Positions 19,432 to 64,000 of a stretch of DNA of 64,000 nucleotides are shown piece after piece. The notes under the pieces are model-generated. The model was not told where the DNA came from and ran no database searches. It saw only the letters and a list, made by a program, of their open reading frames with translations. The number at the start of each line of letters is the position of its first letter. Position 1 is the stretch's first letter. A program made the translations under genes and the position numbers. The DNA is from a virus, in the IMG/VR virus record IMGVR_UViG_3300025617_000006. One strand, 5' to 3'.

Positions 19432-19878
19432 ATGAGCACGTTAGAGAAAAACACAGTCCAAACAGTTAGGGTCAAAAGCAACTCAACACAGTCAAAACCT
19501 GTAAAGCAATCGGCTTACAGAGGACTTAGTACGGTTAATCCTAGCAACCAACAGTACACTCTGTATGATATTGGATTAATCAAGCAAGACTTGTTAAATC
19601 ACTTCCATATTAGACAGGGCGAAAAACTTGAGAATCCGGAGTTTGGAACAATTATTTGGGACATTTTATTTGAACCAATGACTGAAACTCTTAAAGAAGC
19701 CATTGTAGAAGATGTAACACGAATTATTAATAGTGATCCCCGTATAAATGCTACAAATGTTATTGTAGATCAGTACGAAAGTGGTATTCAAATTGAATGT
19801 GAACTTGCATATCTTCCATATAATATATCGGAACAACTAAAATTAGAATTTGACCAAAGTTCAAGTTTTAACGGTTAA
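19432..19878 (+). CDS. gp25: baseplate wedge protein (gp25/GPW-like)
   Basis: IKQDLLNHFHIRQGEKLENPEFGTIIWDILFEP and DPRI motifs. Confidence 0.9.
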   Translation: MSTLEKNTVQTVRVKSNSTQSKPVKQSAYRGLSTVNPSNQQYTLYDIGLIKQDLLNHFHIRQGEKLENPEFGTIIWDILFEPMTETLKEAIVEDVTRIINSDPRINATNVIVDQYESGIQIECELAYLPYNISEQLKLEFDQSSSFNG

Positions 19879-44593: not shown

Positions 44594-44603
44594 AGGAAGT
44601 CAA

Positions 44604-45497: not shown

Positions 45498-45521
45498 TAC
45501 TCCTTCATAGTAAATACTACT

Positions 45522-45866
45522 ATGGACGAGAAACTATCTAAAGCCCTAGAGTTTGGAAACTATTCTGCAACTCTCGATAATCAAAAGCGTATGCTACACG
45601 AAAAATTTGTAACTGATACGCTTTACTTTGTATCAGGCGGACAATTTACTATCAATAAAGAACTTATTAACTATTGCCAGACATTAGTTAGTAATGACCA
45701 ATCCACTGTAATTCTATTAGACGATAACGGTATTCCTATTGAGATATCTGATGTACAAGAGTTTCAAACAGAAATTCTCGATAAGCATTTTACAGCACTA
45801 AATGAATTGTATACTGAATACAAAAAATTAGAGAAAAGCAGGTCAGTTGACGGTTTAGTTGAATGA
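45522..45866 (+). CDS. hypothetical protein (possible fibre assembly chaperone)
   Basis: 114 aa; TAAATA 5 nt upstream of the ATG. Confidence 0.6.
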   Translation: MDEKLSKALEFGNYSATLDNQKRMLHEKFVTDTLYFVSGGQFTINKELINYCQTLVSNDQSTVILLDDNGIPIEISDVQEFQTEILDKHFTALNELYTEYKKLEKSRSVDGLVE

Positions 45867-46699
45867 CAAACGGTGTACTATTATTTGCATATAACAACGA
45901 ACAAATAGATTATGTTGCGCAAGCATGTTATCTATCAAATCGTATTTTGCAGTATATGGGATTACCAACTACATTAGTTACTGATGATGTAGCAAGGGTT
46001 AGAGAACACTATAACGGTGATGAAATTTTTGATAATATTATTGAAGTTTCGTCTGAACTTCATAACAAGAAACGATATAATGACGGTGCGTTGTCTGAAA
46101 AGGTTTTAGATTTTAAAAACTTCAATAGAGACAATGCATATGCAGTGTCTCCTTACGACAACACTCTTGTATTAGACACTGATTATATTATATCTAACGA
46201 TATGTTATTAAATTGTTTCAATAGTAAACACGATTTAATGATGTATACGAGTAGTAATGATATTTCAGGCTGGAGAGATACTAGTGAATTTAGTTTAATA
46301 AGCGAAACAAGTATTAAGTTTTATTGGGCAACATGTGTATTTTTTAAGAAGACCGAATCAAATAAAATTTTCTTTAATCTAATTACACACATTAAAGAAA
46401 ATTATGAACATTATCGAAATCTTTATCAGATAACAACCAAAGTTTTTAGAAATGATTTTGCATTTAGTATTGCAGTTCATATTATGTCAGGGTATACTGA
46501 TAATTTTGTTGCAGAATTACCAGGTAATATGATTTACAGTACATCAAAGGATATATTAGAAAATATTAAAGATAATGAATTAACATTTCTTGTTGAAAAA
46601 GAAAATAGAGTAGGAGAATATACTTTATTAAAATCAACAGGCTTAAATGTACATGTTATGAATAAGTTTAGTTTAGGAAGGAAAATAGCCAATGCCTAA
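45863..46699 (+). CDS. GT-A fold glycosyltransferase (GT8/GT71-like)
   Basis: GVLLFAY, SPYDNTLVLDTD (DxD motif) and RNDFAFSIA. Confidence 0.7.
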   Translation: MTNGVLLFAYNNEQIDYVAQACYLSNRILQYMGLPTTLVTDDVARVREHYNGDEIFDNIIEVSSELHNKKRYNDGALSEKVLDFKNFNRDNAYAVSPYDNTLVLDTDYIISNDMLLNCFNSKHDLMMYTSSNDISGWRDTSEFSLISETSIKFYWATCVFFKKTESNKIFFNLITHIKENYEHYRNLYQITTKVFRNDFAFSIAVHIMSGYTDNFVAELPGNMIYSTSKDILENIKDNELTFLVEKENRVGEYTLLKSTGLNVHVMNKFSLGRKIANA

Positions 46700-47513
46700 C
46701 TTTACATTTCTTGCACAAAATAATGAAGACAATTATGTACGTCAGGCAGAGTTATTAGCCAAGAGTATACGGTTAACAAACCCTAATAGTAAGATTTGTT
46801 TAATCACTAATGACAACGTAGAACATAAAGAGTTATTTGATGACATTGTACCTATACCATGGGAAGATAAAGCAGACGAACATAAATGGAAAGTGCAAAA
46901 CAGATGGAAAATTTATCACGCATGTCCATATGAAAACACATTTGTATTAGATACTGATATGTTAGTAATGCATGATTTAACATACTGGTGGAAATTAATG
47001 CAAAATTATGAAGTGTTTTATACAACTAATGTTACAGATTATAAACAATGTAAACCCGATGTAACATATTATAGAAAAATGTTTATTGAAAATAAATTAC
47101 CTAATACATATGTAGCATTACATTATTTTAAGAAGTCAGATTTTGCAAAAGAATTTTATACTTGCTTGGAAGAAGTAATGAAACATTGGGAATACTATTA
47201 TAAAAAATATGCTCCCAAGCGTATGCAAAAATTTTTAAGTGTTGATGTTTGTACAGCAATTGTTATGCGTGTATTAGATGTAGAACACAAAGTAACTAAT
47301 GCAGTAGCACCGTTTCCTAATTTTGTGCATATGAAACCGTATGCACAAACATGGAAAACGCAAACAGAAAAATGGCAAGACAGGATTACTTGCTTTGTAG
47401 ACGATAACAACCAACTAAAGGTAGGCGGCTATTTACAAAAAACAGTATTTCATTATACTGAAAAGGATTTTACAGATAAATTTTACAATAGATTTTTTAA
47501 GGAAGAACAATGA
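46692..47513 (+). CDS. GT-A fold glycosyltransferase (GT8-like), paralog of the preceding gene
   Basis: LLAKSIR, CPYENTFVLDTDM (DxD motif) and FVHMK. Confidence 0.7.
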   Translation: MPNFTFLAQNNEDNYVRQAELLAKSIRLTNPNSKICLITNDNVEHKELFDDIVPIPWEDKADEHKWKVQNRWKIYHACPYENTFVLDTDMLVMHDLTYWWKLMQNYEVFYTTNVTDYKQCKPDVTYYRKMFIENKLPNTYVALHYFKKSDFAKEFYTCLEEVMKHWEYYYKKYAPKRMQKFLSVDVCTAIVMRVLDVEHKVTNAVAPFPNFVHMKPYAQTWKTQTEKWQDRITCFVDDNNQLKVGGYLQKTVFHYTEKDFTDKFYNRFFKEEQ

Positions 47514-48082
47514 AGTATTGGACAGAAGTTCCATTAGAGGCCGACGCAACGTATGTAGACTTTGATTTGGATACAGGGATTGTTAAAACTATAGGATCTC
47601 AAAAAACTTCAGAACATAGTATTCAAGTTGAGTACAATAGTGTAAAAGATTTGGTTGATGGTAAGGTGTATTTTAAACATTACCGTGTGCAATTTAATCC
47701 GACAACAACAATGTATGAACTTGTTAACAAACACGACGAATTATCGTTTCAGTATAATGTTAACCACAGTTTATATTGTGTACCTAAAACAAGTAAAGCA
47801 GACATAATGCTAGTTAAAGATTATAAAAGCCAAAAGTGGAAAATAAGATACGGCAATGTATTTTCAAAAACGCTAGAAGAAAACAGTGTTACACTACAGA
47901 CGATCAAACATTTTAGTATAGCAAAGAAAAACGATCCTTATATATTATATCGTACACTGAGTTTCAATTTAGCATCTCTAGACTTATGTATAGACTTTAA
48001 TCACACTGATGCTATAACACTTGAATACGATGTATATACAAGTAAACTTTTTAATAGTTATGGAGTAGTAGTAAATGATTAA
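47510..48082 (+). CDS. hypothetical protein
   Basis: 190 aa, translationally coupled within the operon. Confidence 0.65.
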   Translation: MKYWTEVPLEADATYVDFDLDTGIVKTIGSQKTSEHSIQVEYNSVKDLVDGKVYFKHYRVQFNPTTTMYELVNKHDELSFQYNVNHSLYCVPKTSKADIMLVKDYKSQKWKIRYGNVFSKTLEENSVTLQTIKHFSIAKKNDPYILYRTLSFNLASLDLCIDFNHTDAITLEYDVYTSKLFNSYGVVVND

Positions 48083-48956
48083 AGTCCAAGATGTTGATAT
48101 AATCTTTTTAAGTTATGACGAACCTAATGCTGAAGAAAACTGGGCAGACTTAAAACGTAAAGTTCCGTGGGCCAAACGTGTACACGGTGTTGAAGGATCA
48201 GATGCGGCACATAAAGCATGTGCTGATTTGTCAGATACAAAACATTTTGTTACAGTTGACGGCGATACTATTATTGATCCTAAATTTATTGAAGTTGTTG
48301 TAGATACCGATGCTCTTGGAATTACAGACGATCATCAAATAAGTTGGTGTGGAAAAATTGATGTCAACGGATTAATGTATGGTAATGGCAGTTTAAAAAT
48401 GTGGACTAAAGATTTTGTTAAAGATATGCGTACACACGAAAACACTGATGGCAATGACGAAACAAGTATTGAATTTTGCTATTTCGACAATTACTATCAA
48501 CTTAACGAAAACTATTCAACAAGTATTATAAGTGCAACTCCGCAACAAGCATGGCGTGCTGGGTTCCGTGAAGGTGTTAAAATGTCGTTAGACAGGGGCG
48601 CACCAGTAGACGATTTAAATTCTCTATGGTGGCAAAACAAGCACAGACTTTACATTTGGCAAATGGTAGGATGTGATATTCCAAATGGCATTTGGGCAGT
48701 GTATGGTGCAAGGCTTGGTACTTACATGAATATGCTTAGTGATTGGGATCATACACAAACACGAGATTTTACATATCTAAATAGTTTATGGGAAGAACAT
48801 AAAGATGTAAAAGTATCTGAAGAATGTAAGGAATTGGGTAAATTATTAATTAATGAATTAGACTTACCAATTGCAGTTGTTCCGTTTGATAAATTACAAA
48901 GTGAATTTTTTAAGGAAGTATATATTAATAGCGATAGAGTAATTAGACGTAAATGA
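48075..48956 (+). CDS. GT2-like glycosyltransferase
   Basis: DIIFLSYDEP, FVTVDGD (DxD motif) and AWRAGFRE. Confidence 0.65.
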   Translation: MIKVQDVDIIFLSYDEPNAEENWADLKRKVPWAKRVHGVEGSDAAHKACADLSDTKHFVTVDGDTIIDPKFIEVVVDTDALGITDDHQISWCGKIDVNGLMYGNGSLKMWTKDFVKDMRTHENTDGNDETSIEFCYFDNYYQLNENYSTSIISATPQQAWRAGFREGVKMSLDRGAPVDDLNSLWWQNKHRLYIWQMVGCDIPNGIWAVYGARLGTYMNMLSDWDHTQTRDFTYLNSLWEEHKDVKVSEECKELGKLLINELDLPIAVVPFDKLQSEFFKEVYINSDRVIRRK

Positions 48957-50317
48957 GCGAAGTAGATCGAATAAAAGAAATCATGCCGGAGATTGATGCT
49001 ATTAGTCCAACATTCTGTCTGGCTAAATGGCATCATGTTACTATCTATTTGCAAACAGGAGAAACACACAGTTGTTATCATCCTGCACCGCATAAAATTC
49101 CACTTGAAGGATTGAGTAGTAATCCGAGCCAACTACATAATACTCCGCAGAAGAAGCAAGAGCGTAAGCAAATGCTAGCCGGTGAAAAGCCAAATGGCTG
49201 TCAGTATTGTTGGAATATTGAATGCATGGGCAAAGACTATGTAAGTGATAGACATATTAAAACAGCAAGTATTCATACACCTGAGCGCATAGAGGAAATT
49301 AAAAGTAATCCTTGGGACTATAATATTAATCCGGAATATATCGAAGTAAATTTTAGTAATGAATGCAACTTTAAATGTGGATATTGTCATCCGAAGTTTA
49401 GTAGTAGGTATTTTAACGAAATTAAAAAACATGGTCCGTATAGTAATAGTACAGCCCATCGAAACGATATTGATTATTTTGAATTGTTTGAAGAAGATAG
49501 TAACCCATATGTCGAAGCATGGTGGAACTGGTGGCCTGACGTAAGTAAAACTCTTAATATTTTACGAGTTACCGGCGGCGAACCATTAATGCACAAAAGT
49601 ACATGGAGGTTATTTGAAGAACTTAAACAAAATCCTAAACCCCATCTTAATATTGAACTGAATAGTAACATGGGTGTAAAACCAGCACTAGTAGAAAAAT
49701 TAACTCAAAAAGTTAAAGAGTTACGCGAAGCGAACTGCATTGCTAGTTTTAAATTATATACTAGCATCGATACTTGGGGAGAACGTGCTGAGTACACTCG
49801 CACAGGTTTGGATATTAAGTTATGGGAAAGTAATTTAGATTATTATCTTTCTAATACCCCGTGGCCTGTAACATTTATGGTTACATATAACTTATTTGCG
49901 GTTACTAGTTTTAAAATGTTATTAGAAAAGATTCTCGAATGGCGCAAAAAATATAATAACGACAACCAGTCTAAGTGGCAACGTATCCGATTTGATACAC
50001 CTTACTTAACTGAGCCGATTCAATTTGATATGAACATTCTACCTAAGGACTTTGCAGTGCATTTAGAAAGCCAATTAGAATATATTAAATCCAACCTTGA
50101 CAATGCTGACCGTAATAAGTTTAGTGATTTAGAATATGAGCGTTTGCGCAGGGTTGTTGATTATTTTAAAAATACAGAGTATGATGTAAAAAAATTAACA
50201 AACGGACGTAAAAACTTTTATACTTGGTTTAGCGAATATGACAAGCGCAGGAACACTAGCCTTGTAAAAACATTTCCTGAATTAGAACAGTTTTATAAAA
50301 CTTGCTCATTATTATAA
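48953..50317 (+). CDS. radical SAM protein with N-terminal twitch-type Cys domain
   Basis: CNFKCGYC and TGGEP; N-terminal FCLAKW..SCYH..CQYC. Confidence 0.9.
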   Translation: MSEVDRIKEIMPEIDAISPTFCLAKWHHVTIYLQTGETHSCYHPAPHKIPLEGLSSNPSQLHNTPQKKQERKQMLAGEKPNGCQYCWNIECMGKDYVSDRHIKTASIHTPERIEEIKSNPWDYNINPEYIEVNFSNECNFKCGYCHPKFSSRYFNEIKKHGPYSNSTAHRNDIDYFELFEEDSNPYVEAWWNWWPDVSKTLNILRVTGGEPLMHKSTWRLFEELKQNPKPHLNIELNSNMGVKPALVEKLTQKVKELREANCIASFKLYTSIDTWGERAEYTRTGLDIKLWESNLDYYLSNTPWPVTFMVTYNLFAVTSFKMLLEKILEWRKKYNNDNQSKWQRIRFDTPYLTEPIQFDMNILPKDFAVHLESQLEYIKSNLDNADRNKFSDLEYERLRRVVDYFKNTEYDVKKLTNGRKNFYTWFSEYDKRRNTSLVKTFPELEQFYKTCSLL

Positions 50318-51318
50318 ATTTTTAAAGCAAGTTTTTGATTATGCAATAATACATCGTTCATATCATTAAGAATAATTTTAAGTTCTTCAATGCTATTAGA
50401 TTTAATATCATCTAATAGATTATAGATTTTTTGTAGTCTGTTGTTATGATCTATTTCAATATCATAACTTTCATCAAACCATTTTTCAAATGTTTTAAAA
50501 CCTAACTTTCGTATGTACTCGAGTGTACTCGGAGGCGCAACACATATAAACGGTCTTTTGTGTATCATTGCATTAACAGTCTTTTCGCTAAAATTTCCTG
50601 TTGGTTGATAAAAGCGAGTTTCGTTTGCTATTACACAAAAACTATCCTGATAAAACTTTGACAAACTACTAGGTCCTTTTAGTTTTGCATCAGGCCATTT
50701 TTTATAAGTTGAATTGGTTGCTTCTAAATCTAAATCAATTGTTAATGGCGGGTCGCTAAATGCCCAACTGTAGTAACCGGGTATATCTTTAATATAATTA
50801 ATTAATGATTCTCTATGTAAACTATAACGCCAGTTTGGGCAGATAAAATATTTACTAATATTATTATTAATCATCCTAGCACCACCGTTGAATTGATTTC
50901 TTAGAAAAATATCAAAACATTTTAATTCAAACGGATACTCTAAATAGGTTTTAACATTATAATCGCAAGTGTATACAGTGATATTACAATTTAAGTTTTG
51001 TGCAAATTTTGCAATAGAATCTAATTCTTCTGCACGTAAAAATTCGCCGCCTTTGAATTCGCTAAAGAAGTCTCTGTTATGCGGTTTTCCGTCTTCGTAT
51101 AATGTTAATGGTTCGTACAGATAGATATCTAATGTTTTTAATTTTTTAGTAAGTTTGTGGGTTATCGGAAACTTACTAAAATCTATTTTATTTGTACCTG
51201 TATAAATCATATAAGGATTAGTTGGTTTCCACTGTTTAAAAAGATCTTTAAACATATTACTAGACTTTGGTTTGATTTTACAAGGCATATTCCCCCAAAA
51301 AAGATCTTGGGTAAACAT
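50293..51318 (-). CDS. GT-B-like protein (GT10/GT47-like C-terminus)
   Basis: IANETRF...FSEKTVNAMIHKRPFICVA....LEYIRKLGFKTF..WFDESYD. Confidence 0.55.
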   Translation of the reverse strand: MFTQDLFWGNMPCKIKPKSSNMFKDLFKQWKPTNPYMIYTGTNKIDFSKFPITHKLTKKLKTLDIYLYEPLTLYEDGKPHNRDFFSEFKGGEFLRAEELDSIAKFAQNLNCNITVYTCDYNVKTYLEYPFELKCFDIFLRNQFNGGARMINNNISKYFICPNWRYSLHRESLINYIKDIPGYYSWAFSDPPLTIDLDLEATNSTYKKWPDAKLKGPSSLSKFYQDSFCVIANETRFYQPTGNFSEKTVNAMIHKRPFICVAPPSTLEYIRKLGFKTFEKWFDESYDIEIDHNNRLQKIYNLLDDIKSNSIEELKIILNDMNDVLLHNQKLALKIYNNEQVL

Positions 51319-51824
51319 TAGAACAATGTGCCTGTTATTTGCAGTGTATATCTAGGATCAATACCAATGTTACTTGCGGCATGCGGTACGTCAGGATGCC
51401 ATAATACATACTCTCCTGCTACATAATCTGTAACAGCACGACCACCAACTTCGAAGTAGTGTCCTGGCTTCCAGTCTTCTAAAAAAACAATTGCTCGTCT
51501 AACATCTTTACGTTGTTGTTTAAACACTCGGCAGTATGTATTAAAGTGATCAACATGGGTTGGCATAATATCAAGAGTATCCATTCGATAGATTACAAAT
51601 CCTGTATTATGTAAATTGATCATTTCTGCAACTTTGCTAACCCAGTCTGGCATTACGTTTCGACTGTCGTACATTTTACCTGTAGTAGTTTCGTGCGTAT
51701 ACCCTTGCTCTCGCCAAGTGTCTGCTTCTTTACCTGTAATAGGTTGTCTTGTATAATCAAAGTTTTTAAAATCGTCGTTCCATATTTTAGGAACAGTACC
51801 TTTATACCACATCACGTTCAACAT
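51318..51824 (-). CDS. 2OG-Fe(II)/cupin oxygenase
   Basis: MPTHVD (HxD) and PHAASNIG..PRYTLQITG. Confidence 0.75.
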   Translation of the reverse strand: MLNVMWYKGTVPKIWNDDFKNFDYTRQPITGKEADTWREQGYTHETTTGKMYDSRNVMPDWVSKVAEMINLHNTGFVIYRMDTLDIMPTHVDHFNTYCRVFKQQRKDVRRAIVFLEDWKPGHYFEVGGRAVTDYVAGEYVLWHPDVPHAASNIGIDPRYTLQITGTLF

Positions 51825-52770
51825 CCAAAGTTACACAATGAAACCCGCCACCAAGTGTACGTTGATGTCTCATTGGAAGCATAGCACAATCGATACCTTG
51901 TGCTTCTAATGCTTTTCTTAAAGGCACTTGGTTTTCTTCAAGTGCTACTAACTTACTATTTACACTAAACAAGTTCATATTAATCCAAGTACTTGCATTG
52001 CACCATTTAGGATAATGACCGATGTCAACAGGTTCAGGGCACCATATAATATCCCAACTGCGGAATGGTTCTGGTAAATCGTCTTTTGATTTTATTCTAC
52101 TTGGATTAGCAAGTAATAATCCTTCACGCAAAAAAGCAACAGTGCTATCAATGTGCATGTAACTATATACATCTTCTAGTAGATGCACTTTTGCTGTGTT
52201 ACCTAATGCTTCTTGCAACAATACCGAACCTAATTTGTTTCCGCTATTACTGACAAGATATAGCACATCATCATTTGCTCTAATAATATTAGCCGCATCA
52301 AATGCTGGTTCAAATTCAGTTAGTGCAAGTATATCTTTATTTCCTACGCAGTTGGTATTATATAAACCGCTTTCGTGGTAGCAAGGAACTTGAATAGGAT
52401 TATTCAAATGCTTTTCAAATGCTTTCCATTCACCTTTTCTTGCACGAATGGGCATTGGTGTTGCAAGTGTTAACTCACCGTGAATAAACACACTATCTCG
52501 CGGACAATAATTATAATAAGCACAATCTGTTTTATCGGGACGAACTACGTCAACACCTTGACCTTTTAAAAAGTTTGTAAACGTTTCTAAATCTTCATTT
52601 GCTTCGTCGACTACTTGTTGCGGATACAGGCCTTTAATAATTTCAGTTTCGTCATGTTTGTCTGCAAAGTTTACACATCGCAAACTAATATCTATATCAT
52701 TAGGAATTTTTGCATTGTCTGCGACTCCTACAATTACCTTGCGGAGTTGTCCCCATTCGTTTGTATTCAT
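51802..52770 (-). CDS. amidinotransferase (glycine / inosamine-phosphate StrB1 family)
   Basis: NEWGQLRKVIVG, CPRD, FDAAN (Asp), MHIDST (His) and GGGFHCVTLD (Cys): the catalytic triad motifs. Confidence 0.9.
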   Translation of the reverse strand: MNTNEWGQLRKVIVGVADNAKIPNDIDISLRCVNFADKHDETEIIKGLYPQQVVDEANEDLETFTNFLKGQGVDVVRPDKTDCAYYNYCPRDSVFIHGELTLATPMPIRARKGEWKAFEKHLNNPIQVPCYHESGLYNTNCVGNKDILALTEFEPAFDAANIIRANDDVLYLVSNSGNKLGSVLLQEALGNTAKVHLLEDVYSYMHIDSTVAFLREGLLLANPSRIKSKDDLPEPFRSWDIIWCPEPVDIGHYPKWCNASTWINMNLFSVNSKLVALEENQVPLRKALEAQGIDCAMLPMRHQRTLGGGFHCVTLDVERDVV

Positions 52771-53351
52771 TTAAACACTTCCATATCTGGCAAGTACGGA
52801 TAATCTTGGCTAGTCCATAGTTTACCTTGTTTTATTGTTTTTAATTTTTCAATACCTAGTTGTGCAGTTTCAGGTGTCATGTAATAATGATAACCTATAT
52901 GTTTTATGTTTTGTTCTGCCCAGGGCTTATCATCGGTTCTTCCATCGTAAGACATACATTTAAGAATATCATAATCTTCTTTAGTGGAACATAAAATTGC
53001 TCCACCCCTGCCCAAGTTTAGCATTTTCTTAAATTGAAAACTTAAACACATGTATTGTCCGGGCAAGTAACTATTTCTTTTAAAGTTAACAGCGCCGTCG
53101 ATGATACGTGTGCCTTCTAAAAAATAATATTCACTCCAATTAGTGTCAACAAAGTTCCAGTTTAGACCAACCTTTGTTAATGTAAACGGAACACTAATAT
53201 ATGTTCGCGCTGGGATCTTAATGTATACTTGCGGACGCAAGTATCTTAAGCATAACTCAATAGCATGAGTACAACTATCTGTTGCTACAGCATATGGCGC
53301 ATCATAATAGTCAGCAATTTGTTCTTCAAACTTTCGTACTGTTTCAAACAT
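52767..53351 (-). CDS. DegT/DnrJ/EryC1/StrS-family aminotransferase, unusually short (194 aa)
   Basis: FEEQIADY...AVATDSCTHAIEL, P..TYIS and LSFQFKKML..GRGGAI (PLP lysine motif). Confidence 0.8.
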   Translation of the reverse strand: MFETVRKFEEQIADYYDAPYAVATDSCTHAIELCLRYLRPQVYIKIPARTYISVPFTLTKVGLNWNFVDTNWSEYYFLEGTRIIDGAVNFKRNSYLPGQYMCLSFQFKKMLNLGRGGAILCSTKEDYDILKCMSYDGRTDDKPWAEQNIKHIGYHYYMTPETAQLGIEKLKTIKQGKLWTSQDYPYLPDMEVFK

Positions 53352-53356
53352 AAAAG

Positions 53357-53381
53357 TATTTATATACGCAGATAATAAGTA
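53357..53381. promoter_or_regulatory. divergent late promoters (TATAAATA on - at 53364-53357; TAAGTA on + at 53376-53381)
   Basis: Exact T4 late consensus on the minus strand, 5 nt from the ATG at 53351. Confidence 0.65.
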
Positions 53382-53386
53382 ATAGT

Positions 53387-56126: not shown

Positions 56127-57081
56127 GGATATTGTAAAATTTGGACAAAAAACAATGTTAGACACTGAGTTGTTTAATGTTAGTTGGATTCTGGGAAGAT
56201 TTTGTAATTACAAATGTAGTTACTGTTGGCCGTATGCTAATACTGATAAACCGGATCATCAAGAATTTAAAGTATATACACAAACTATTGACGAAATAAA
56301 GCGTCAAGCGAGAGAAAACGGATTTAATAATTTTCACTTTAGTTTTAGTGGCGGCGAACCAACTGCTTATAAATACTTTGGTGATCTTATAGAATACTAT
56401 AGTAGCGACACAACACCCGAGTATCAAAGTATTCATATGACTACCAACTTGTCACCAGGGAGCAAATGGTGGAACAAATGGCTAGAAGTAACTAACACCC
56501 TTCAGCGTAGAAGTATAACAGCAAGTTATCACGCTGAATTTGCTAATGAACAGGAGTTTGGAGATAAATGTCTCCAATTAATAAAAAATAATGTCTATGT
56601 TACAATCAATCAAGTTATGGTTCCAGAAATGTTCGAAGAACTTTATGAACGCTTGGAACGATTTGCCGCCAGAGGTATTAACGTCACTCTCAAGCCCCAG
56701 TCCGATCCAACCGCCTCCCACGTGGTACATGGATACACTGAAGACCAGATCACAAGGATGCAAACCGGATTCCCGCAAACAGTTAAGCAAGAGCAAGTCT
56801 ACCAAGTCGGTCTCCAAGATGCTCAAGGAGTAGAGTACGAGTTAGACCAAGCAGAACGGTTTAACGCATTTGGATTTAACAAGTTCGAAGGATGGACTTG
56901 TAATGCAGGCTATCAAAGTTGCATTATACGCGGCAATGAAGTAAAGCGGGCATACAGTTGTATGGAAGAACCGTTAGGCACGCTGTATGACGGTTTTACG
57001 CTGTTTAAGACACCATCTAAGTGCGTAACTGCTACATGTGTAAGTAGTGCAGATAGTAAGATTCCAAAGGCGAAACTATGA
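56104..57081 (+). CDS. radical SAM protein with C-terminal twitch/SPASM-like cysteines
   Basis: CNYKCSYC and SGGEP; C-terminal CNAG..SC..C...C. Confidence 0.9.
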   Translation: MTTPIPFKDIVKFGQKTMLDTELFNVSWILGRFCNYKCSYCWPYANTDKPDHQEFKVYTQTIDEIKRQARENGFNNFHFSFSGGEPTAYKYFGDLIEYYSSDTTPEYQSIHMTTNLSPGSKWWNKWLEVTNTLQRRSITASYHAEFANEQEFGDKCLQLIKNNVYVTINQVMVPEMFEELYERLERFAARGINVTLKPQSDPTASHVVHGYTEDQITRMQTGFPQTVKQEQVYQVGLQDAQGVEYELDQAERFNAFGFNKFEGWTCNAGYQSCIIRGNEVKRAYSCMEEPLGTLYDGFTLFKTPSKCVTATCVSSADSKIPKAKL

Positions 57082-57689
57082 AAGTTAATATAGAAGACGT
57101 TCTGTTTTGGATGGATGCAATACGCAACAGCGATGACCGTTATCGCACACTTGAAAGTTTTTGGAAAGGCCAAGTACACAGTAAAGAATGGCTAGTTGAA
57201 ACATTAAATGATTTTGATGATTGTACTGATAAGCATGTAGTTGTACATGGCGGCTGGAACGGTGTATTATCAAGTTTATTGTTTAATAGTAATCTAAATA
57301 TACAACGTATCACAAGTATTGACATTGACCCTGCATGTGAAGAAATTGCATACACTATCAATAAGCGTTATGAAATGCAAGGCAGATTCAAAGCAATCAC
57401 TGAGGATATGTGTACATATACATATCATGAACTAGTTGATATTGTTATTAATACAAGTTGCGAACATATAACTCAATCTCAATATAATAAATGGTTGACA
57501 AATCAACCCAAAGATGCTTTAATAGTATTGCAGAGTAATAATTATTTTGATCTAGATGAACATATTAGATGCGCCAGTAATCTAGACGAGTTTGAAAAAC
57601 AGTCAAATATTGATGTATTATGGAGTGGCGAATATAATCATCCTAAGTACAAAAGATTTATGTTGATTGGATATAAACAAGATGTATGA
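57078..57689 (+). CDS. class I SAM-dependent methyltransferase
   Basis: VVVHGGWNG, SIDIDP and VINTSCEH. Confidence 0.75.
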   Translation: MKVNIEDVLFWMDAIRNSDDRYRTLESFWKGQVHSKEWLVETLNDFDDCTDKHVVVHGGWNGVLSSLLFNSNLNIQRITSIDIDPACEEIAYTINKRYEMQGRFKAITEDMCTYTYHELVDIVINTSCEHITQSQYNKWLTNQPKDALIVLQSNNYFDLDEHIRCASNLDEFEKQSNIDVLWSGEYNHPKYKRFMLIGYKQDV

Positions 57690-58680
57690 GTATAGCAACA
57701 TAACTTCAATTCATTTAGAGGTTACTAGTAAATGTCAAGCACGGTGTCCTATGTGTCCAAGAAGATTACAGGGCGGCCCGTTACTTGAAGGATTGGATTT
57801 AGAAGAAATTGACCTCGAAACTTTTGTTAATTGGTTCCCAAGAGACTTTGTACGCCAATTAAAGTTTCTTAGTATGTGTGGTAATTTAGGAGATCCAATT
57901 GTTGCAAAAGACACATTAGAAATTTTTAGATACTTGCGTGAAAGCAATTCTGAAATGACTTTACAAATGCATACTAATGGAAGTGGCAGAACTAAAGAAT
58001 GGTGGCGCGGACTTGCAGAATTAAAAGTAAAAGTTGTATTTGGTCTTGACGGACTTAAAGATACTCATGCACTATACCGAATAAACACTAACTGGGAAAA
58101 GATTATTAACAATGCATCACACTTTATCCATGCTGGAGGAGATGCTCGTTGGGATATGTTAGTATTTGAACATAATGAACACCAAGTTGATACTTGTGAA
58201 CAAATGAGTAAGGAATTAGGATTTACTGGATTCAGTATTAAACATACAACAAGATTTAAAGATGGTAAGTTTGATGTACTTGATGACGACTATAATATTA
58301 CACATACTTTAATGCCATCAAGTAAAAGTCTTAAAATGATACAGCCGGTAAAGGAAGCGGCACAAGAACTACTGCCTAAAATTAATTGTAAAGCAATACA
58401 AGATAGTCAAATGTACATTAGTGCAAATGGAAATGTTAGTCCTTGTTGCTGGTTAGATTTAGAGTGGTTACCACAGCATTCAACACAGCGAATTGATTAT
58501 ATGATAAAAGTTGGAAAGTTTCCTAATCTGCATAGGAATACTATGCAAGAAATATTTGAAAGTAACTTTTTTAATACTATTAGTAGTTGCTGGACTAGTA
58601 CTGGACTTAAAGAGTGTTCAAAACAATGTGGAAGTTTTGATAAACTAAATGCACAGTTTGAGAGACACCAGCATGAGTAA
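57682..58680 (+). CDS. radical SAM / SPASM-twitch protein
   Basis: CQARCPMC, GNLGDP and TNGS; C-terminal C..ISANGNVSPCC...CSKQC; ATG at 57682 within the tracked ORF 57667. Confidence 0.9.
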   Translation: MYEYSNITSIHLEVTSKCQARCPMCPRRLQGGPLLEGLDLEEIDLETFVNWFPRDFVRQLKFLSMCGNLGDPIVAKDTLEIFRYLRESNSEMTLQMHTNGSGRTKEWWRGLAELKVKVVFGLDGLKDTHALYRINTNWEKIINNASHFIHAGGDARWDMLVFEHNEHQVDTCEQMSKELGFTGFSIKHTTRFKDGKFDVLDDDYNITHTLMPSSKSLKMIQPVKEAAQELLPKINCKAIQDSQMYISANGNVSPCCWLDLEWLPQHSTQRIDYMIKVGKFPNLHRNTMQEIFESNFFNTISSCWTSTGLKECSKQCGSFDKLNAQFERHQHE

Positions 58681-59977
58681 AACATTTTGTCCTCTACCAT
58701 GGATACATTTAGCAACTCGTCCTAATGGAGATGTCAGAGTATGCTGTACTGCTAATGCAAGCGGCGCAGGCATGGATGACGATAAAGAAGTAGGACTAGT
58801 TAAGCAAGACGGCATTAATATGAATGTGCGCGACCATACTATTGAAGAAGTATTTAATAGTCATCAGATGCGTACTACAAGATTGCAAATGCTTAATGGC
58901 GAAATTCCTGCTAGTTGTCGAAAGTGTTTTGAAGAAGAATCTAAAGGGATCAAGAGTAAGCGTAATTGGGAAACAGAGGTTTGGAAAGAACGCATCGACA
59001 TTGACAACATAGTGTCGCAAACACAGGCTGACGGAAGTCTACCAGCGAATATTCCTTACTTTGATTTACGATTAGGAAATATATGTAATTTGAAATGTGT
59101 TATGTGTAGTCCGCATGATAGTTCTAGTTGGATTAAAGATTGGAAACTGCAATACCCCCAATATACAAACCCCCAACTAAAGCAAGATCAAAATTGGAAC
59201 CCTAACTTTGATTATACTTGGTATAAGAAAGGTACATTTATTGAAAGTATGAAGAGTCAAGCAAAGTATATAAAAGAATTGTATTTTGCAGGCGGCGAGC
59301 CATTAATGATTCCCGAACACTATTCAATCTTACAATTTATGGTTGACGAAGGTTTTGCTAAAGAGTGTATTATTAGATATAATTCAAACGGTACAATAAT
59401 TGACCAACGCACTTTAGATTTGTGGAGTAAGTTTAAACAGGTTAAATTTAATTTTAGTTTAGATGCTATTGATGAACGTAACGACTACATAAGGTATCCA
59501 AGTAAGTTTAATGAAATTGAAACAAACTTACAAATGTTGGATGATACACCGGACAATATTATAGTTAATATTGCGTGTGCAGTACAGGCACTAAATGTTC
59601 ACCACATTGTTGATCTAGCAGAATGGAAAATTGCAAAGAATTTTAAAAAGATTAATCAAGCCCCATATGGCGCAGGCATGATAGGGTTACATTTAGTTTA
59701 CCTACCAAGTCATATGAATGTTAGAGTGTTACCCAAAGAAATTAAGCAGGAAGTATCAGCAAAGATAACTAACTTTGCAACACATTTTTTACGTGATTTT
59801 GAATTTAATACAAATCCTTATGGTAAAGAAAGGTGGTTAGGTCTTGTTAATTATATGAACGCTGAAGATTGGAGTCATAAACTTCCGGCATTACAACAAT
59901 ACCTACAAATAAACGATAAAACAAGGGAACAGAACTTTGTTAACGTGTTTCCAGAACTGGAGGCATTATGGAAGTAG
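58673..59977 (+). CDS. radical SAM protein with N-terminal twitch-type domain
   Basis: FCPLPW..VRVCC..CRKC, CNLKCVMC and AGGEP; ATG at 58673. Confidence 0.9.
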   Translation: MSKTFCPLPWIHLATRPNGDVRVCCTANASGAGMDDDKEVGLVKQDGINMNVRDHTIEEVFNSHQMRTTRLQMLNGEIPASCRKCFEEESKGIKSKRNWETEVWKERIDIDNIVSQTQADGSLPANIPYFDLRLGNICNLKCVMCSPHDSSSWIKDWKLQYPQYTNPQLKQDQNWNPNFDYTWYKKGTFIESMKSQAKYIKELYFAGGEPLMIPEHYSILQFMVDEGFAKECIIRYNSNGTIIDQRTLDLWSKFKQVKFNFSLDAIDERNDYIRYPSKFNEIETNLQMLDDTPDNIIVNIACAVQALNVHHIVDLAEWKIAKNFKKINQAPYGAGMIGLHLVYLPSHMNVRVLPKEIKQEVSAKITNFATHFLRDFEFNTNPYGKERWLGLVNYMNAEDWSHKLPALQQYLQINDKTREQNFVNVFPELEALWK

Positions 59978-60549
59978 GATTTAAAGTAATTTGTAATAGT
60001 ATTGATCCTAGCGAAATGGGTGATCAAAAAGTCTTCGGAACAGAAGAAACAAATTCTCATTTAATATTAAGATCATCTGCAAATGAGCAGTTGTTATATC
60101 TTGATGGTGCTACAGGAGGTAATGAGCCTATCTTCATCGGACTTTCTAAATCACGTGGAGATCAAACTAATAAGTTACCAGTAGAGCCAGGCGATACACT
60201 AGGAGGTCTACAGGTATACGGTAGAACAAAATCAGGAAACAGTTTAGGTTATTGTCACGATGAATCCCCACTAACAGGAGCAATACAGTTTTTTGTTAGC
60301 GATGATTATGATAAAAGCGGAGCAGTATCATCAGAACTAATTATTGCACTCTCAGACAATCAAGATATGAGTGTTAAATTAAAAGTTGACAGCAAAGGAA
60401 ATTTAATTACACAAGGTAGTATAACAAGCGGCCAATTAACTATAACAGACAACACAATTGAAAATGTCGGTGCTGTAGAAAAATATGTTGAAGTATATCA
60501 TAATGGTAAAAGATATGCTATGCCCTTATATCGGATAGACAATGAGTAA
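59968..60549 (+). CDS. hypothetical protein resembling a tail-fibre repeat module
   Basis: KSRG.....PVEPGDTLGGLQVYG...KLKVDSKGNL. Confidence 0.55.
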   Translation: MEVGFKVICNSIDPSEMGDQKVFGTEETNSHLILRSSANEQLLYLDGATGGNEPIFIGLSKSRGDQTNKLPVEPGDTLGGLQVYGRTKSGNSLGYCHDESPLTGAIQFFVSDDYDKSGAVSSELIIALSDNQDMSVKLKVDSKGNLITQGSITSGQLTITDNTIENVGAVEKYVEVYHNGKRYAMPLYRIDNE

Positions 60550-61222
60550 GTTTACCTGGAAATACAAAGACTATAAAAATGATAGTCTTAATAGCATTGC
60601 AAGGAATATAACAGAATTCCATACTGCTATCTTGTCTGATGTTGACTACTCTACAACAAAAGGAACACCAATAGGTACTATTTTTTTAGATGACGAATAT
60701 ACTGTTGAAGATACGAGTGTACTAAACAGCCTACTAAACTACAATATATATTTTAAAAAGAATACAGAAGATAGAATAGTAACAGATATCAAACCTGATT
60801 GTGCGGTTGTATTAGCAAGTGGAGAAAAAGCCAATCAAATAGATGCTGAACACAAATACATTATAGATATAAGTCCTAGAGCATTAGAAAAAACCAAAGA
60901 CTTTTTAGATTTACCTACAAGTAATTATTACCAAGTTGACCTATTTGATACAGAACAAGTATCTAAATTTTTAAAGGGTTGCAAGGGCGAAACGGGTATA
61001 TTTTGTGTAAGCAATGTATTTTTATACCTACCTAATTGTATAATGTTTGATTCTAAAGCAAGATTAAAAAAACAGAACGAACTAATGAAACTGTTATCAC
61101 AAGATAAAATTAACTGGTATGTAGATATTGTAACTGTAAACGGAACGTATATACAAGCACCAGCAAAACAATTAGTAGATATTTCATTGGACGAAAAGTT
61201 TAAGGTGTTGCCGTGGATATAG
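60542..61222 (+). CDS. hypothetical protein (possible degenerate Rossmann/methyltransferase fold)
   Basis: VVLASG and IIDISPRAL; coupled to neighbouring genes. Confidence 0.55.
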   Translation: MSKFTWKYKDYKNDSLNSIARNITEFHTAILSDVDYSTTKGTPIGTIFLDDEYTVEDTSVLNSLLNYNIYFKKNTEDRIVTDIKPDCAVVLASGEKANQIDAEHKYIIDISPRALEKTKDFLDLPTSNYYQVDLFDTEQVSKFLKGCKGETGIFCVSNVFLYLPNCIMFDSKARLKKQNELMKLLSQDKINWYVDIVTVNGTYIQAPAKQLVDISLDEKFKVLPWI

Positions 61223-61857
61223 TAGAACAATTTAACTGGATAAGACATAACAGCGGACTTGCTACACTTCGACTGGACATTTCGAAACCAAGTAGTGCTA
61301 TGCGAGAAGAACTACTACAAAGTCTACACCTTGCAGTTCCTCATAGAGAGGACGAAGGCAACGGTTGGCGTAGTTTAACACTACACGGACACAGTTCTAC
61401 AATGACTGACAGTGACGAAGCATATTCAGAACAAGGATTTGTACTCGGAGAAAAGTCGTGGACTGATGTGGCAAAGTTTTTTCCATTAACGAAAAAATGG
61501 ATTACGGAAAATGTGCCATTCGAAAAGTATGGTAGAATTAGAGTTATGATAGTTGATCCGGGTGGGTATGTCAGCCAACATAAAGACTACCCAAACGGAC
61601 AATTACTAGCAGGTATTAATGTTGCTATAACACATCCACAAGGTGTTATTTTTGATATTGAAAATTATGGCAATGTAGAATGGCAAGAAGGCGAATCAAG
61701 ATTAATTGATCTTGGAAGTCTTCATCAAGTTACAAACAATAGCAATGAGCCAAGGATACATATAATTATACACAGCGAACCAATCGATGACTGGGGTAAC
61801 GAAGTTATGCAATTAGTTTGCGATAGTTACAAGAAGGAATACAATGAATCAAAATGA
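61213..61857 (+). CDS. aspartyl/asparaginyl beta-hydroxylase-like 2OG-Fe(II) oxygenase
   Basis: WRSLTLHG, RIRVMIVDPGGYVSQHKD and HQVTNNSNEPRIHIIIH. Confidence 0.8.
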   Translation: MDIVEQFNWIRHNSGLATLRLDISKPSSAMREELLQSLHLAVPHREDEGNGWRSLTLHGHSSTMTDSDEAYSEQGFVLGEKSWTDVAKFFPLTKKWITENVPFEKYGRIRVMIVDPGGYVSQHKDYPNGQLLAGINVAITHPQGVIFDIENYGNVEWQEGESRLIDLGSLHQVTNNSNEPRIHIIIHSEPIDDWGNEVMQLVCDSYKKEYNESK

Positions 61858-62500
61858 AATTGAACGAGCATTGCGCTGGCAGAGTTTAGTTAATCTCGGC
61901 AATCAAGTAAAACTAAAATGGAAGATTGATCATTATGCTGTTGAGCAACAGTTAGAACAGTTTAACGATAACTGGTGCCCGTATAATGCTAAAAAGGATA
62001 CACACAATAATCGATGGGGTCTTCCGGTAACTAGCCACACAGGCGATGTTATGGACAACTATCATTTGAATAGTTTTGGCCATATGCAAAAGTATCATGA
62101 TGTTGAAATGAAAGAAGAAAATTTTAACACTCCGACAGATGTATATCATAAGATTCCTGAACTTAAAAAAATAGTCGATGTGTTTGCACCAGACATTGGT
62201 AGGGTGCATTTACTACGAGTAGACCAAGGCGGATTCTTCCCTCCACACAGAGACTTTCACGGAACTAGTCCAGAGTACTTTAGATTGTTAACTGTATTTG
62301 GACGCTGTAGCCCTGAAAATTATGTACAACTTATTGACGGCAAGCCATTATACCCTGAAGCAGGATATGTATATTTTACTAACTTTCAATTAGATCATAG
62401 TGTGTTTAGTTTTAGTGATAACTTGTATAGTTTAGTAATAACTGTAAAACTTAATGAGCGTACACAGAATCTTATTTTGCAAAACACGATGGCAGAATGA
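61844..62500 (+). CDS. 2OG-Fe(II)/cupin oxygenase (Asp-beta-hydroxylase-like)
   Basis: GRVHLLRVDQGGFFPPHRD and distal His in DHSVFSF. Confidence 0.7.
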   Translation: MNQNEIERALRWQSLVNLGNQVKLKWKIDHYAVEQQLEQFNDNWCPYNAKKDTHNNRWGLPVTSHTGDVMDNYHLNSFGHMQKYHDVEMKEENFNTPTDVYHKIPELKKIVDVFAPDIGRVHLLRVDQGGFFPPHRDFHGTSPEYFRLLTVFGRCSPENYVQLIDGKPLYPEAGYVYFTNFQLDHSVFSFSDNLYSLVITVKLNERTQNLILQNTMAE

Positions 62501-63402
62501 ACCTAACGTATCAAGATAATACAAAAGAAAATTGGTTCCTTGTTAGTTGGACATTGTCTAACAAGTGTAACTATCGCTGTTCTTATTGCCCGGACCATTT
62601 ACATAATGGTTCGACAGGTCAGCCTAGATGGGAAACAGTAAAAAGATTTGTTGAGAACTTTAAACAGCCTAACAAAGACATCTGCTATAGACTTAGTGGC
62701 GGCGAGCCTACACACTGGAAACACTTTTTAGATCTTGCTAAACTAGTAAAAGAAAAAGGACATACGTTTACATTTTTAACTAATGGTAGTAAAAGTGTAG
62801 ACTACTATAAAACTATATCGCAATACACTGACGGCTATATTATTTCATATCATCCTGAATACGCAAATATTAATCACATCAAGGAAGTTATACAAGCAAG
62901 TAATTGTCCTGTATTCATTAACCTAATGTTAACTCCGGATAACTTTAATGAAATGTATGATGTTGCAAAACAAATATACAACAGTGCAGATAATGTTAGT
63001 GTATGGCCTAAGATTATTTTAGATAAATCAAATATTGATGCTATAACAAATACACCTGCAAGTTACACACAAGAGCAATTAGACACAATAACAAATTGGA
63101 AATTTTTTAGAAAACTACCCGATGTAAATTTACACAGGGGTGAATTAATGTTAGATAACACTCCAGTAACTGCAAATGATTTAATTGCAACAAACCGAAA
63201 CATGTTTTATGGTTGGAAATGTTGGGCAGGATTGCATATGATTAATATTGACATGTGGGGCAATATATACAGAGCCGATTGTAAAGAAGGCGGAGCATTA
63301 GGCAATATTGAACGTTATAAGTTACCTACAGAAACAATCCAATGTGGCAAAAAGGTGTGTGCTTGTCTAAGCGATATCTATTTAAGAAAAGAGACTACGT
63401 AA
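62497..63402 (+). CDS. radical SAM protein (paralog of 56104-57081)
   Basis: CNYRCSYC, SGGEP and TNGS; C-terminal CWAG..ADC..CGKKVCAC. Confidence 0.9.
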   Translation: MNLTYQDNTKENWFLVSWTLSNKCNYRCSYCPDHLHNGSTGQPRWETVKRFVENFKQPNKDICYRLSGGEPTHWKHFLDLAKLVKEKGHTFTFLTNGSKSVDYYKTISQYTDGYIISYHPEYANINHIKEVIQASNCPVFINLMLTPDNFNEMYDVAKQIYNSADNVSVWPKIILDKSNIDAITNTPASYTQEQLDTITNWKFFRKLPDVNLHRGELMLDNTPVTANDLIATNRNMFYGWKCWAGLHMINIDMWGNIYRADCKEGGALGNIERYKLPTETIQCGKKVCACLSDIYLRKETT

Positions 63403-64000
63403 TTCAGGACAAACACTTAGTACATCTGTTCCACGTAGTTGATCAACTTTCTTTGTAAAATCTATAAAATTTTCTAAATCAGTTGGACTATCGACAGAGT
63501 TGTAACCAGTCTCGGTTAATATATCATGCGGCAATATACTTGGATTTAAGTATGCCGGAGTAGTTACTACATTATTAAGATATAATTCATAATTAGGTTT
63601 CTTAACACTGTCGTACCATTGTTTAATTTCTTTTAGATGGCACACATTGTATGTCATTACAGTTCCAGCAAATATAACCCGGTCCATTTTATTAAAGTGT
63701 TCAAGATTTTCAACTAGTTGTTCAAATGGAAAGTTATTCCCGCCTCTAATATATTCGTATAGTTTACCAGTGCCCTCAATACTAATATGCCATTTGGTTT
63801 CTTTGAACTGATGTGCTAGACTATCAAACTCTAAATCGACAACAGTACCGTTAGTACTAATATCTAATGTAATGTTTTTTGCAAGATCTAAATCAATTAG
63901 TTTTTGCATAATTTGTTTATTAGCAGGCTCCATATAAGGCTCGCCGCCTTTGATGTTAACATACTGTAAATTTTTAAAGTATTCAGGATATTCAAAAAGT
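63382..64000 (-). CDS. radical SAM protein, 5' end outside the window
   Basis: Frame is open to the window edge (..YVNIKGGEPYM..); ISTNGT and SIEG....YEYIR motifs. Confidence 0.75.
   Translation of the reverse strand, partial: LFEYPEYFKNLQYVNIKGGEPYMEPANKQIMQKLIDLDLAKNITLDISTNGTVVDLEFDSLAHQFKETKWHISIEGTGKLYEYIRGGNNFPFEQLVENLEHFNKMDRVIFAGTVMTYNVCHLKEIKQWYDSVKKPNYELYLNNVVTTPAYLNPSILPHDILTETGYNSVDSPTDLENFIDFTKKVDQLRGTDVLSVCPELRSLFS

Follow-up and report, generated by a model that had tools for sequence, protein, structure and literature searches.

An island of enzyme genes occupies positions 45522-64000 (~18.5 kb) of the 64,000-nt stretch of DNA analysed here, from an uncultured marine giant phage (IMG/VR virus record IMGVR_UViG_3300025617_000006), which we refer to as the window. 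We suggest, tentatively and with somewhat less than even confidence, that this island encodes cytoplasmic enzymes that together make a guanidino/amino-sugar glycan, edit it and place it preferably on the fibre or virion proteins of the phage. The folds and families of the enzymes, their predicted solubility, the operon packing and the conserved linkage of the genes are established here; the substrate, product, order of steps and acceptor are what we infer. A first-pass annotation of this DNA had proposed that the phage encodes the building and tailoring of an unusual glycan, on virion proteins or on the host surface. The glycan part of this proposal is well supported: the gene content fits it, as do bacterial relatives of the radical S-adenosylmethionine (SAM) genes, which in Bdellovibrionota lie among enzymes of nucleoside-diphosphate (NDP) sugars and glycosyltransferases. 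We take 45522-64000 to be the first 18.5 kb of a cytoplasmic island of ~30-34 kb.

The 23 open reading frames (ORFs) of the stretch form a gap-free block directly after the tail-fibre genes; non-coding DNA is limited to 24 nt ahead of 45522 and to the 35 nt that separate the divergent starts 53351 and 53387. Each of the 19 junctions of same-strand neighbours is an overlap of 1-32 nt, in agreement with the translational coupling of most genes that had been noted earlier. None of the 23 island proteins, nor the products of two scanned fibre-side genes, has a 19-residue window with a Kyte-Doolittle mean >1.5, and for this reason all island proteins are predicted to be soluble, without a membrane helix.

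Candidate steps of a proposed guanidino-sugar pathway

In the first step that we propose, an NDP-hexose would be oxidised by the UGDH-like product of 53387-54604 (+), an NDP-sugar 6-dehydrogenase of the UGDH/GMD family. It matches PF00984 (66.1 bits; cut-off 25.4), PF03721 (58.6 bits; cut-off 27), the UGDH structure 3vtf (E 1.2e-20) and phrog_9148 (317 bits), and falls below the cut-offs of the C-terminal UDP-binding domain PF03720 (18.9 bits; cut-off 30) and of the subfamily profile TIGR03026 (161.2 bits; cut-off 189.8); by these profile scores it is a divergent member of the UDP-glucose/GDP-mannose dehydrogenase family. The keto-sugar intermediate would then be aminated by a half-size DegT-family pyridoxal-phosphate (PLP) aminotransferase of 194 aa (52767-53351, -), which matches PF01041 (66.3 bits; cut-off 19.8) in two stretches (profile positions 24-97 and ~163-245). 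It is without the full two-domain length of ~360-390 residues, a half size common to its phage and Bdellovibrio homologues, and its SF..KK motif, with the invariant K108/K109, falls on the SF..K lysine region when aligned to the sugar aminotransferase 7b0m. In the third step, an enzyme of the StrB1 type would turn the amine into a guanidino group with arginine as the donor. Its gene (51802-52770, -) encodes an arginine amidinotransferase that matches 1BWD over residues 4-319 of 322 (E 4.8e-62), also matches AGAT, HsvA and SxtG, and carries a C-terminal GGGFHC motif; it is 66% identical to the 'inosamine amidinotransferase' of the cultured cyanophage S-SCSM2R, and CP220-type Campylobacter phages have a relative at 23-25% identity. 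All three enzyme classes thus agree with those assigned at first pass.

Tailoring of the sugars would follow, by six radical SAM enzymes, three Fe/2-oxoglutarate (2OG) oxygenases, a methyltransferase-like protein and an SGNH-like protein, with C-methylation, epimerisation, dehydration, hydroxylation and (de)acylation as possible reactions. The six radical SAM genes (48953-50317, 56104-57081, 57667-58680, 58649-59977, 62497-63402 and, on the minus strand, 63382-63999) were also counted in the first-pass annotation and are borne out by PF04055 or NF033640 matches, five with CxxxCxxC and further cysteines and the sixth lacking its N-terminus at the window end. PF04055 matched 6 of the 23 island proteins, two of them below the Pfam cut-off, one being the truncated gene. 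Two genes encode radical SAM proteins with an N-terminal twitch domain (NF033640, named N_Twi_rSAM, curated cut-off 170 bits), namely 48953-50317 (+; 312.8 bits, CNFKCGYC at residue 138) and 58649-59977 (+; 416.3 bits), and 63382-64000 (-; 130.7 bits over 205 residues) holds the C-terminal portion of a third, the rest of which lies beyond the window. Its homologue in a syntenic relative (G001, described below) is full-length, with 361 aa and SPASM and Radical_SAM matches. Across the 11 sequences of the family alignment (A1), C14, C90, C93, C146, C150 and C153 are invariant, so that the members carry CxxxCxxC together with N-terminal cysteines that are predicted ligands of a twitch-type auxiliary cluster. 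Relatives in cultured phages are only 23-25% identical (KVP40-type Vibrio phages and RsoM2USA). The gene at 57667-58680 (+) adds a C-terminal SPASM domain (PF04055 35.8 bits, cut-off 29.5; PF13186 29.6 bits, cut-off 21.5), and those at 56104-57081 (+; PF04055 51.8 bits, CNYKCSYC at residue 34) and 62497-63402 (+; PF04055 43.4 bits, CNYRCSYC at residue 24) encode proteins with a cysteine-rich C-terminus that are distant paralogs and fall in one cluster.

Three 2OG oxygenases had likewise been recorded, and all three hold, on different grounds. That at 61213-61857 (+) is of the Asp/Arg beta-hydroxylase type (PF05118, 42 bits; cut-off 22.6). The product of 61844-62500 (+) belongs to an unannotated family whose profile (A4) matches the beta-hydroxylases 7v4o (E 1.2e-5) and 7v4f as well as proline hydroxylases, with invariant H135, D137 and H185 in an HxD...H arrangement. 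The third, a cupin/2OG-oxygenase-like protein of 168 aa (51318-51824, -) with an HVD...H motif, is assigned solely by homology, being 27% identical to S-SCSM2R ORF308, annotated as a 2OG-Fe(II) oxygenase. The class-I methyltransferase-like protein at 57078-57689 (+) is consistent with the names of its cluster in a language-model atlas and with an atlas lead to Methyltransf_31 (0.96, 207 shared features), but the earlier methyltransferase call is unproven, with Methyltransf_25 at E 0.069 and PDB profile matches at E 0.3-1.4, none below E 0.3. Similarly, the SGNH call at 54538-55446 (+; true start probably 54601) is consistent with an esterase/acyltransferase candidate whose family has an invariant serine (S76 in GCS.TEG) and D..H (D257, H260), but is unproven: all family matches were below cut-offs (DUF6473 in 12 of 18 members, best E 0.0011; ALGX and GDSL_2 in 1 of 18 each), and a PDB sequence profile search with the family gave no match.

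Sugar transfer, the fifth step, would be carried out by four GT-A-type enzymes and one GT-B enzyme. The glycosyltransferase at 50293-51318 (-), of an unannotated family, had been called GT-B-like, and its structure model (pLDDT 91.6) confirms a GT-B fold along the entire protein: the Foldseek matches are all GT-B, as are the 50 listed VIA matches (Z 9.4-10.8, with 209-261 residues aligned over 5-340), ranging from SdgB and TarM to fucosyltransferases and T4 DNA glucosyltransferases. Only 1 of the 120 listed homologues (121 in all) carries a Pfam domain, PF05118. The four GT-A genes had been described as two paralog pairs, and both pairs are real. In the first, 55434-56126 (+) encodes a GT-A-fold (nucleotide-diphospho-sugar transferase) protein of an island core family; its model (pLDDT 92.4) has 31 Foldseek matches at E<=1e-3, which among those listed are GT-A glycosyltransferases or the same-fold sugar-nucleotidyltransferase HddC, and its VIA Z of 9-11.5 over residues 1-137 is tied with the same-fold nucleotidyltransferases IspD and MobA. 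The model confirms the GT-A fold for this family, and the transferase activity is putative. The longer paralog at 48075-48956 (+; 29% identity, E 4e-22) is taken to have the GT-A fold because of this relationship; in their alignment (A2) D57 and D59 of the DxD motif are nearly invariant, and the family including 48075 is present in 33 of 122 loci. The second pair (45863-46699 and 46692-47513, both +; 26% identity, E 2e-9) has a DTD motif and consists of GT8-like (GT-A) candidates by a lead only: the atlas links them to GT8, Mannosyl_trans3 and Nucleotid_trans (0.95, 163 shared features) through a cluster with PF01501 in 25% of its members, and Pfam itself has no match at E<=10. PDB sequence profile searches with the GT-A and GT-B families returned nothing usable.

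Conserved linkage to the fibre module and relatives in predatory bacteria

A search of IMG/VR with 58649 gave 42 viral loci, many of them short, so that the counts are lower bounds. The SPASM gene 57667 is present in all 42, and 56104, 57078 and 62497 in 41 each; 63382 follows with 38 loci, 61844 with 35 and 55434 with 29; the dehydrogenase and SGNH-like genes each occur in 17, and the amidinotransferase, DegT and 51318 genes in 8. Three longer records, G001 (a 98.7-kb fragment), G002 and G003, were extended for synteny. They share the gene order of the window, a giant protein followed by g38294, three fibres, g44604 and g45522, and keep the order beyond it through the GT8-like pair, g47510, the GT-A gene and the N-twitch radical SAM gene. 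The fibres themselves are 78-88% identical to those of the window in G001 and 32-57% in G002 and G003; co-occurrence with fibre genes across related phages, proposed as a check at first pass, is thus found over a range of 32-88% fibre identity. In G001 the island extends over ~34 kb, running until replication-type genes, and holds further radical SAM genes (at least nine in all), a 151-aa APH/RIO-like protein and five or six PF05118 cupins. The window carries a cassette (59968, 60542 and 61213) that G001 does not have, and is without two small genes present in G001. The APH/RIO-like family is present in 20 viral loci, and its Pfam matches, for three members (two at E<=1e-3), are below cut-off except for RIO1 on one. 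The island of G001 is closed by a gene of the flavin-dependent tryptophan-halogenase type (PF04820, E 8e-72; L122:6621-7721), and a PrnA gene (ORF330) lies near the amidino module of S-SCSM2R. In another locus (L023), an AdoMet decarboxylase (9603-10007) and a class-III aminotransferase (11305-12423) are inserted among the radical SAM genes.

Relatives of the island also reside in bacterial chromosomes. Scanning the N-twitch alignment against one genome per species yielded 341 radical SAM relatives. Of 78 retained loci, 67 have Bdellovibrionota-type names; several of these lie on Mb-scale chromosomes, and one comes from a Bdellovibrio in culture. Among the remaining 11 are marine contigs of metagenome-assembled genomes, possibly mis-binned phage. 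Like the island, these chromosomal N_Twi_rSAM clusters combine the same radical SAM subfamilies and partner families at 30-58% identity. The cellular loci have several N-twitch paralogs beside the partner families, which are 56104 (25 loci, ~50% identical), 57667 (32), 57078 (14), the GT-A family (9), the amidinotransferase (5), the UGDH-like enzyme (3) and the half-size DegT (2), a picture with which a clustering of 1668 ORFs from the 122 loci agrees. Identities in Bdellovibrionota are 48-55% for the UGDH-like, 45-47% for the half-size DegT and up to 46% for the amidinotransferase proteins. Unlike the island, the Bdellovibrionota clusters are cellular, recur at several loci per genome and adjoin genes of the GT2/PMT_2 type. 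Their other neighbours are YdjC, a short SDR/epimerase, FdtA, NDP-hexose 2,3-dehydratase, a carbamoyltransferase, canonical UGDH and a polysaccharide lyase, and it is mainly because these neighbours are sugar enzymes that we read the radical SAM proteins as probable sugar editors rather than peptide maturases.

The first-pass annotation had described the island as late-expressed, with late-promoter boxes at 45511, 53357 and 53376. The variant octamer ATAAATAC occurs nine times in the window (6.3 expected), and seven of these occurrences (4926, 8829(-), 14064, 19420, 19908, 38270 and 53356(-)) are in the right orientation 4-32 nt upstream of a gene start. Six of the seven precede genes upstream of the island that are mostly structural or flank the structural module, the seventh precedes the DegT/amidinotransferase operon, and the octamer looks like the -10 box of late promoters in this phage. 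The proposed box at 53357(-) is exact, an ATAAATAC/TATAAATA box that ends 4 nt upstream of the DegT gene start; that at 45511 is the variant GTAAATAC, 4 nt before the ATG of 45522, and is kept in G001, where a hairpin and T-run lie upstream of it before the first island gene; but 53376 matches nothing. With a late-type box before the DegT operon, late expression is plausible for this phage, but it is not a conserved property, because in G002 and G003 the first island gene is preceded by a TATAAT hexamer instead of a late-type box. The earlier description as late-expressed is therefore supported only in part. Boxes at 19420-19434, 45511-45524 and 53351-53363 end 4 nt before an ATG and have no Shine-Dalgarno sequence, and transcripts starting at them would be nearly leaderless. 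Scans for sigma-70 promoters (97 against 92 expected) and terminator-like sites in the island (7 against 9.8 expected) revealed no enrichment. The two convergent gene pairs overlap at their 3' ends, by 25 nt at 50293-50317 and by 21 nt at 63382-63402, and no terminator-like site lies between the members of either pair. A 2845-nt RNA-library contig runs from fibre gene 43115 into 45863 with zero mismatches. Some RNA-library contig depth was found in 30 of 30 island bins for X1, 25 of 30 for X2 and 6 of 30 for X3, although such depth cannot rank genes and possible DNA carry-over is uncontrolled. A joint in X2 that skips 44436-53470 was disregarded, as it has only 22 letters on one side.

A PHROG profile scan of the ORFs upstream of the island matched a T4-type portal, a gp55-type late sigma factor, a gp46/47-type nuclease, and baseplate hub and wedge proteins (gp6-type baseplate). 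The portal reaches a top identity of 47-48% among 2558 matching phage records, the best being jumbo phages such as PA5oct and Atu_ph07, and megablast of the 18.5-kb island stretch against 50,697 phage records gave zero matches. The genome is likely to measure several hundred kb, because the syntenic 98.7-kb fragment G001 is rated 28% complete by CheckV. A single 4965-aa ORF (23376-38273) encodes a giant structural protein of the VrlC type, 40-84% identical to its counterparts in G001-G003, and precedes the fibre module. The latter comprises three paralogous tail-fibre genes (38913-40982, 40982-43081 and 43115-44593, all +) with PHROG tail fibre/collar matches, and the fibre-linked gene g44604 (44604-45497, +; 297 aa), whose place in the order is kept in G001, G002 and G003. 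The fibre paralogs are alike over their first 190-370 residues (30-44% identity) and diverge in their C-terminal parts, a common N-terminal part with differing ends that suggests one attachment domain carrying three different tips. Adjoining the portal gene, 15-626 (-) has a match to phrog_30607 and a weak one (E 7e-5) to a PHROG of the sialyltransferase type, and its product is possibly a further glycosyltransferase outside the island. Between structural and nuclease genes, a 149-aa ORF (9647-10096, -) has PHROG matches that are annotated as NAD synthetase (E 1e-39) and as homing endonuclease.

Several island proteins could be assigned to no family. The first island gene (45522-45866, +; 114 aa) is 44-74% identical in G001-G003, and a 190-aa protein (47510-48082, +) that is conserved but fast-evolving is 22-60% identical there. 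Two genes for proteins of 193 aa and 226 aa (59968-61222, +), part of the cassette missing from the close relative G001, had no match among the related loci searched, and 60542 has 40 homologue clusters, all without a Pfam domain. Searches of Pfam, PHROG and NCBIfam gave no family for 45522, 47510, 59968 or 60542, and Pfam at E<=10 no credible match for these four or for the GT8-like candidates 45863 and 46692.

Possible acceptors of the proposed glycan and other readings of the island

The preferred acceptors in our proposal are the phage's own fibre or virion proteins, which would be glycosylated in the cytoplasm before assembly. We favour this acceptor because position and packing behind the fibres are conserved, a late-type box is present and an RNA-library contig spans the fibre-to-island boundary, and yet we would place its likelihood a little below an even chance. 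A number of observations weigh against it. With 2 occurrences in 64 kb where 9.8 are expected, the T4 late box TATAAATA is under-represented, and the TATAAT hexamer replaces the late-type box in two of the three syntenic relatives; RNA-library contigs may contain DNA, so that a contig is not a proven transcript; and the GT8, methyltransferase and SGNH assignments are leads only. Soluble glycosyltransferases of the lipopolysaccharide (LPS)-core type are also without membrane helices, and the predicted solubility of the island proteins therefore leaves a host target possible. In S-SCSM2R, the trio of DegT, 2OG oxygenase and amidinotransferase genes stands among small genes and genes of the auxiliary metabolic gene (AMG) type, not beside fibres. 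Placement behind the fibres may itself mean little, because this region is a published hot spot of accessory genes (PMC7029224).

The choice between virion and host surface, which the first-pass annotation had left as alternatives, is thus not settled: fibre linkage and the late-type box favour the virion, and the S-SCSM2R placement and the TATAAT hexamers oppose it. By the same chemistry, the glycan or a modified NDP-sugar might end up in the envelope of the host, on its LPS core, O-chain or capsule, and alter the surface of the infected cell, for example by blocking superinfection or preventing progeny from adsorbing to debris. This we regard as possible but on balance unlikely, and somewhat less probable than a virion acceptor. 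A host target is how the glycosyltransferase and LPS-type genes in the host recognition cluster of pelagimyophages have been read in print (PMC7029224), and it would agree with the promoter hexamers of G002 and G003, with an S-SCSM2R module that lies among AMG-type genes with KdsA/KdsB and many glycosyltransferases, and with Bdellovibrionota relatives that sit beside GT2 and PMT_2-type genes. The island, however, encodes no flippase, polymerase, ligase, undecaprenyl-phosphate transferase or membrane protein among its 23 proteins, its place after the fibres is conserved, and a late-type box precedes the amidino operon.

A free guanidino compound resembling an aminoglycoside or aminocyclitol, used by phages and predatory bacteria against prey or competitors, is improbable. 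Among solved structures, the amidinotransferase is closest to StrB1 of streptomycin synthesis, the matches of the DegT profile include 2-deoxy-scyllo-inosose and scyllo-inositol aminotransferases, relatives of the island add the small APH/RIO-like kinase in 20 viral loci, and the S-SCSM2R genes have been termed 'antibiotic synthesis genes' (PMC12801897). No cyclitol-forming enzyme (inositol-phosphate synthase or 2-deoxy-scyllo-inosose synthase) was matched among the 23 proteins, however, nor was an exporter or resistance gene seen, and five transferases and an NDP-sugar dehydrogenase suit a glycan better. Slightly more doubtful again is that a free cationic guanidino-glycoside would be a 'predation metabolite' common to giant lytic phages and Bdellovibrionota, predators of Gram-negative cells; if true, this would be the first virus-encoded antibiotic-like pathway, with a role for the N-twitch radical SAM family.

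Pathways of thymidine hypermodification include radical SAM and PLP enzymes, and the tied structural matches of the GT-B model (Z 9.4-10.2) include the beta- and alpha-glucosyltransferases of T4, so that glycosylation and tailoring of phage DNA bases could also be envisaged. This is very unlikely: as the first-pass annotation had also noted, genes of the thymidylate-synthase and nucleotide-kinase type are absent, Pfam and NCBIfam finding no thymidylate-synthase homologue, nucleotide or hydroxymethyluracil-DNA kinase or DNA transferase among the 23 block proteins; none of 5 related records has PF00303, these records being fragments with an estimated completeness of 10-28%; and the Bdellovibrionota relatives are in sugar contexts, not restriction or DNA contexts. 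Hardly any weight can be given to direct action of the radical SAM/SPASM enzymes and hydroxylases on peptide or virion side chains, in the manner of ribosomally synthesised and post-translationally modified peptides and with sugars secondary, since, although SPASM/twitch radical SAM enzymes and Asp/Arg hydroxylases are often peptide modifiers, and there are weak NCBIfam matches to peptide maturases and a best PDB sequence match of the N-twitch profile (A1) to SkfB (E 1e-6), the overlapping junctions and the two short gaps leave no room for a precursor gene, the bacterial relatives are embedded among NDP-sugar enzymes, and the peptide-maturase scores are all far under cut-offs.

Relation to known systems and implications

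The gene set is not new: the island belongs to a recurrent kind, and similar ones appear as gene lists in three published studies (PMC7029224, PMC5332604 and PMC12801897). The 'host recognition cluster' of pelagimyophages and cyanomyophages (Zaragoza-Solas et al. 2020, PMC7029224), as described in the text available, is like the island a large variable region behind a VrlC-type giant protein, with tail fibres, and contains glycosyltransferases (GT8 being the commonest), UDP-glucose dehydrogenase, rfaE-type genes and radical SAM cassettes. The window fits the description of such a cluster, with its T4-type hits, 4965-aa protein, three fibres, island and cassette variation against G001. Unlike the present analysis, that description, within the same limits, is a gene list only, favours modification of the host O-chain and leaves the amidinotransferase unmentioned; and in contrast to the myophages it covers, the window has a portal that is nearest to jumbo phages, at only 47-48% identity. 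A marine T4-like environmental genome, TARA_ERS488813_N000010, also has unusually many radical SAM genes (12; Nishimura et al. 2017, PMC5332604), a likeness compared by description only, and in the portion of that work available it is, unlike here, discussed solely for Fe-S cluster supply. NF033640 and Bdellovibrionota are unmentioned, and no chemistry is demonstrated, in the parts of the three studies considered, and our literature search found nothing joining radical SAM enzymes with Bdellovibrio and a glycan, or with a jumbo phage and glycosyltransferases.

A counterpart in a cultured phage is ORF305-309 of cyanophage S-SCSM2R (PQ898602.1), with DegT, 2OG oxygenase and amidinotransferase proteins at 54%, 27% and 66% identity, surrounded by a radical SAM gene and five glycosyltransferase genes. 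Unlike the island, S-SCSM2R has one radical SAM gene, against six or more, and its module lies far from the fibres. In the 2025 paper on this phage (PMC12801897), 'antibiotic synthesis genes' is the term for its DegT, amidinotransferase and radical SAM genes, and their function is left open; the paper also reports ORF266 and ORF269, a second amidinotransferase and a 2OG oxygenase, in the proteome of purified virions. These two genes (L128:17354-20337) adjoin KdsA/KdsB, not structural genes.

The order of a DegT aminotransferase followed by an arginine-dependent amidinotransferase is also that of the streptidine branch of streptomycin biosynthesis (StsC-type and StrB1). The island differs from this branch in having no cyclitol-forming enzyme, a half-size aminotransferase, and a context of NDP-sugar dehydrogenase and glycosyltransferases, and the substrate of its amidinotransferase is probably a sugar, not inosamine phosphate. 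Virion glycosylation by viruses has precedents in chlorovirus PBCV-1 with A64R, in Mimivirus fibrils and in mycobacteriophages, where soluble virus-encoded glycosyltransferases and NDP-sugar enzymes decorate capsid or fibre proteins in the cytoplasm. PBCV-1 A64R is among the fold matches of the 55434 model, and none of these systems is known to employ radical SAM arrays or an amidinotransferase.

Confirmation of the product would make it the first known glycan that a radical SAM array edits and that bears a guanidino sugar, and would provide the first function for NF033640, whose members number in the hundreds across marine phages and predatory bacteria. With the amidino module at 54-66% identity in the cultured S-SCSM2R, the question is open to bench testing, and the main value of the island is as a pointer to testable chemistry in this cultured relative. 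The site of the glycan, on phage fibres or on the host surface, would bear on host recognition or on competitor exclusion by abundant marine giant phages.

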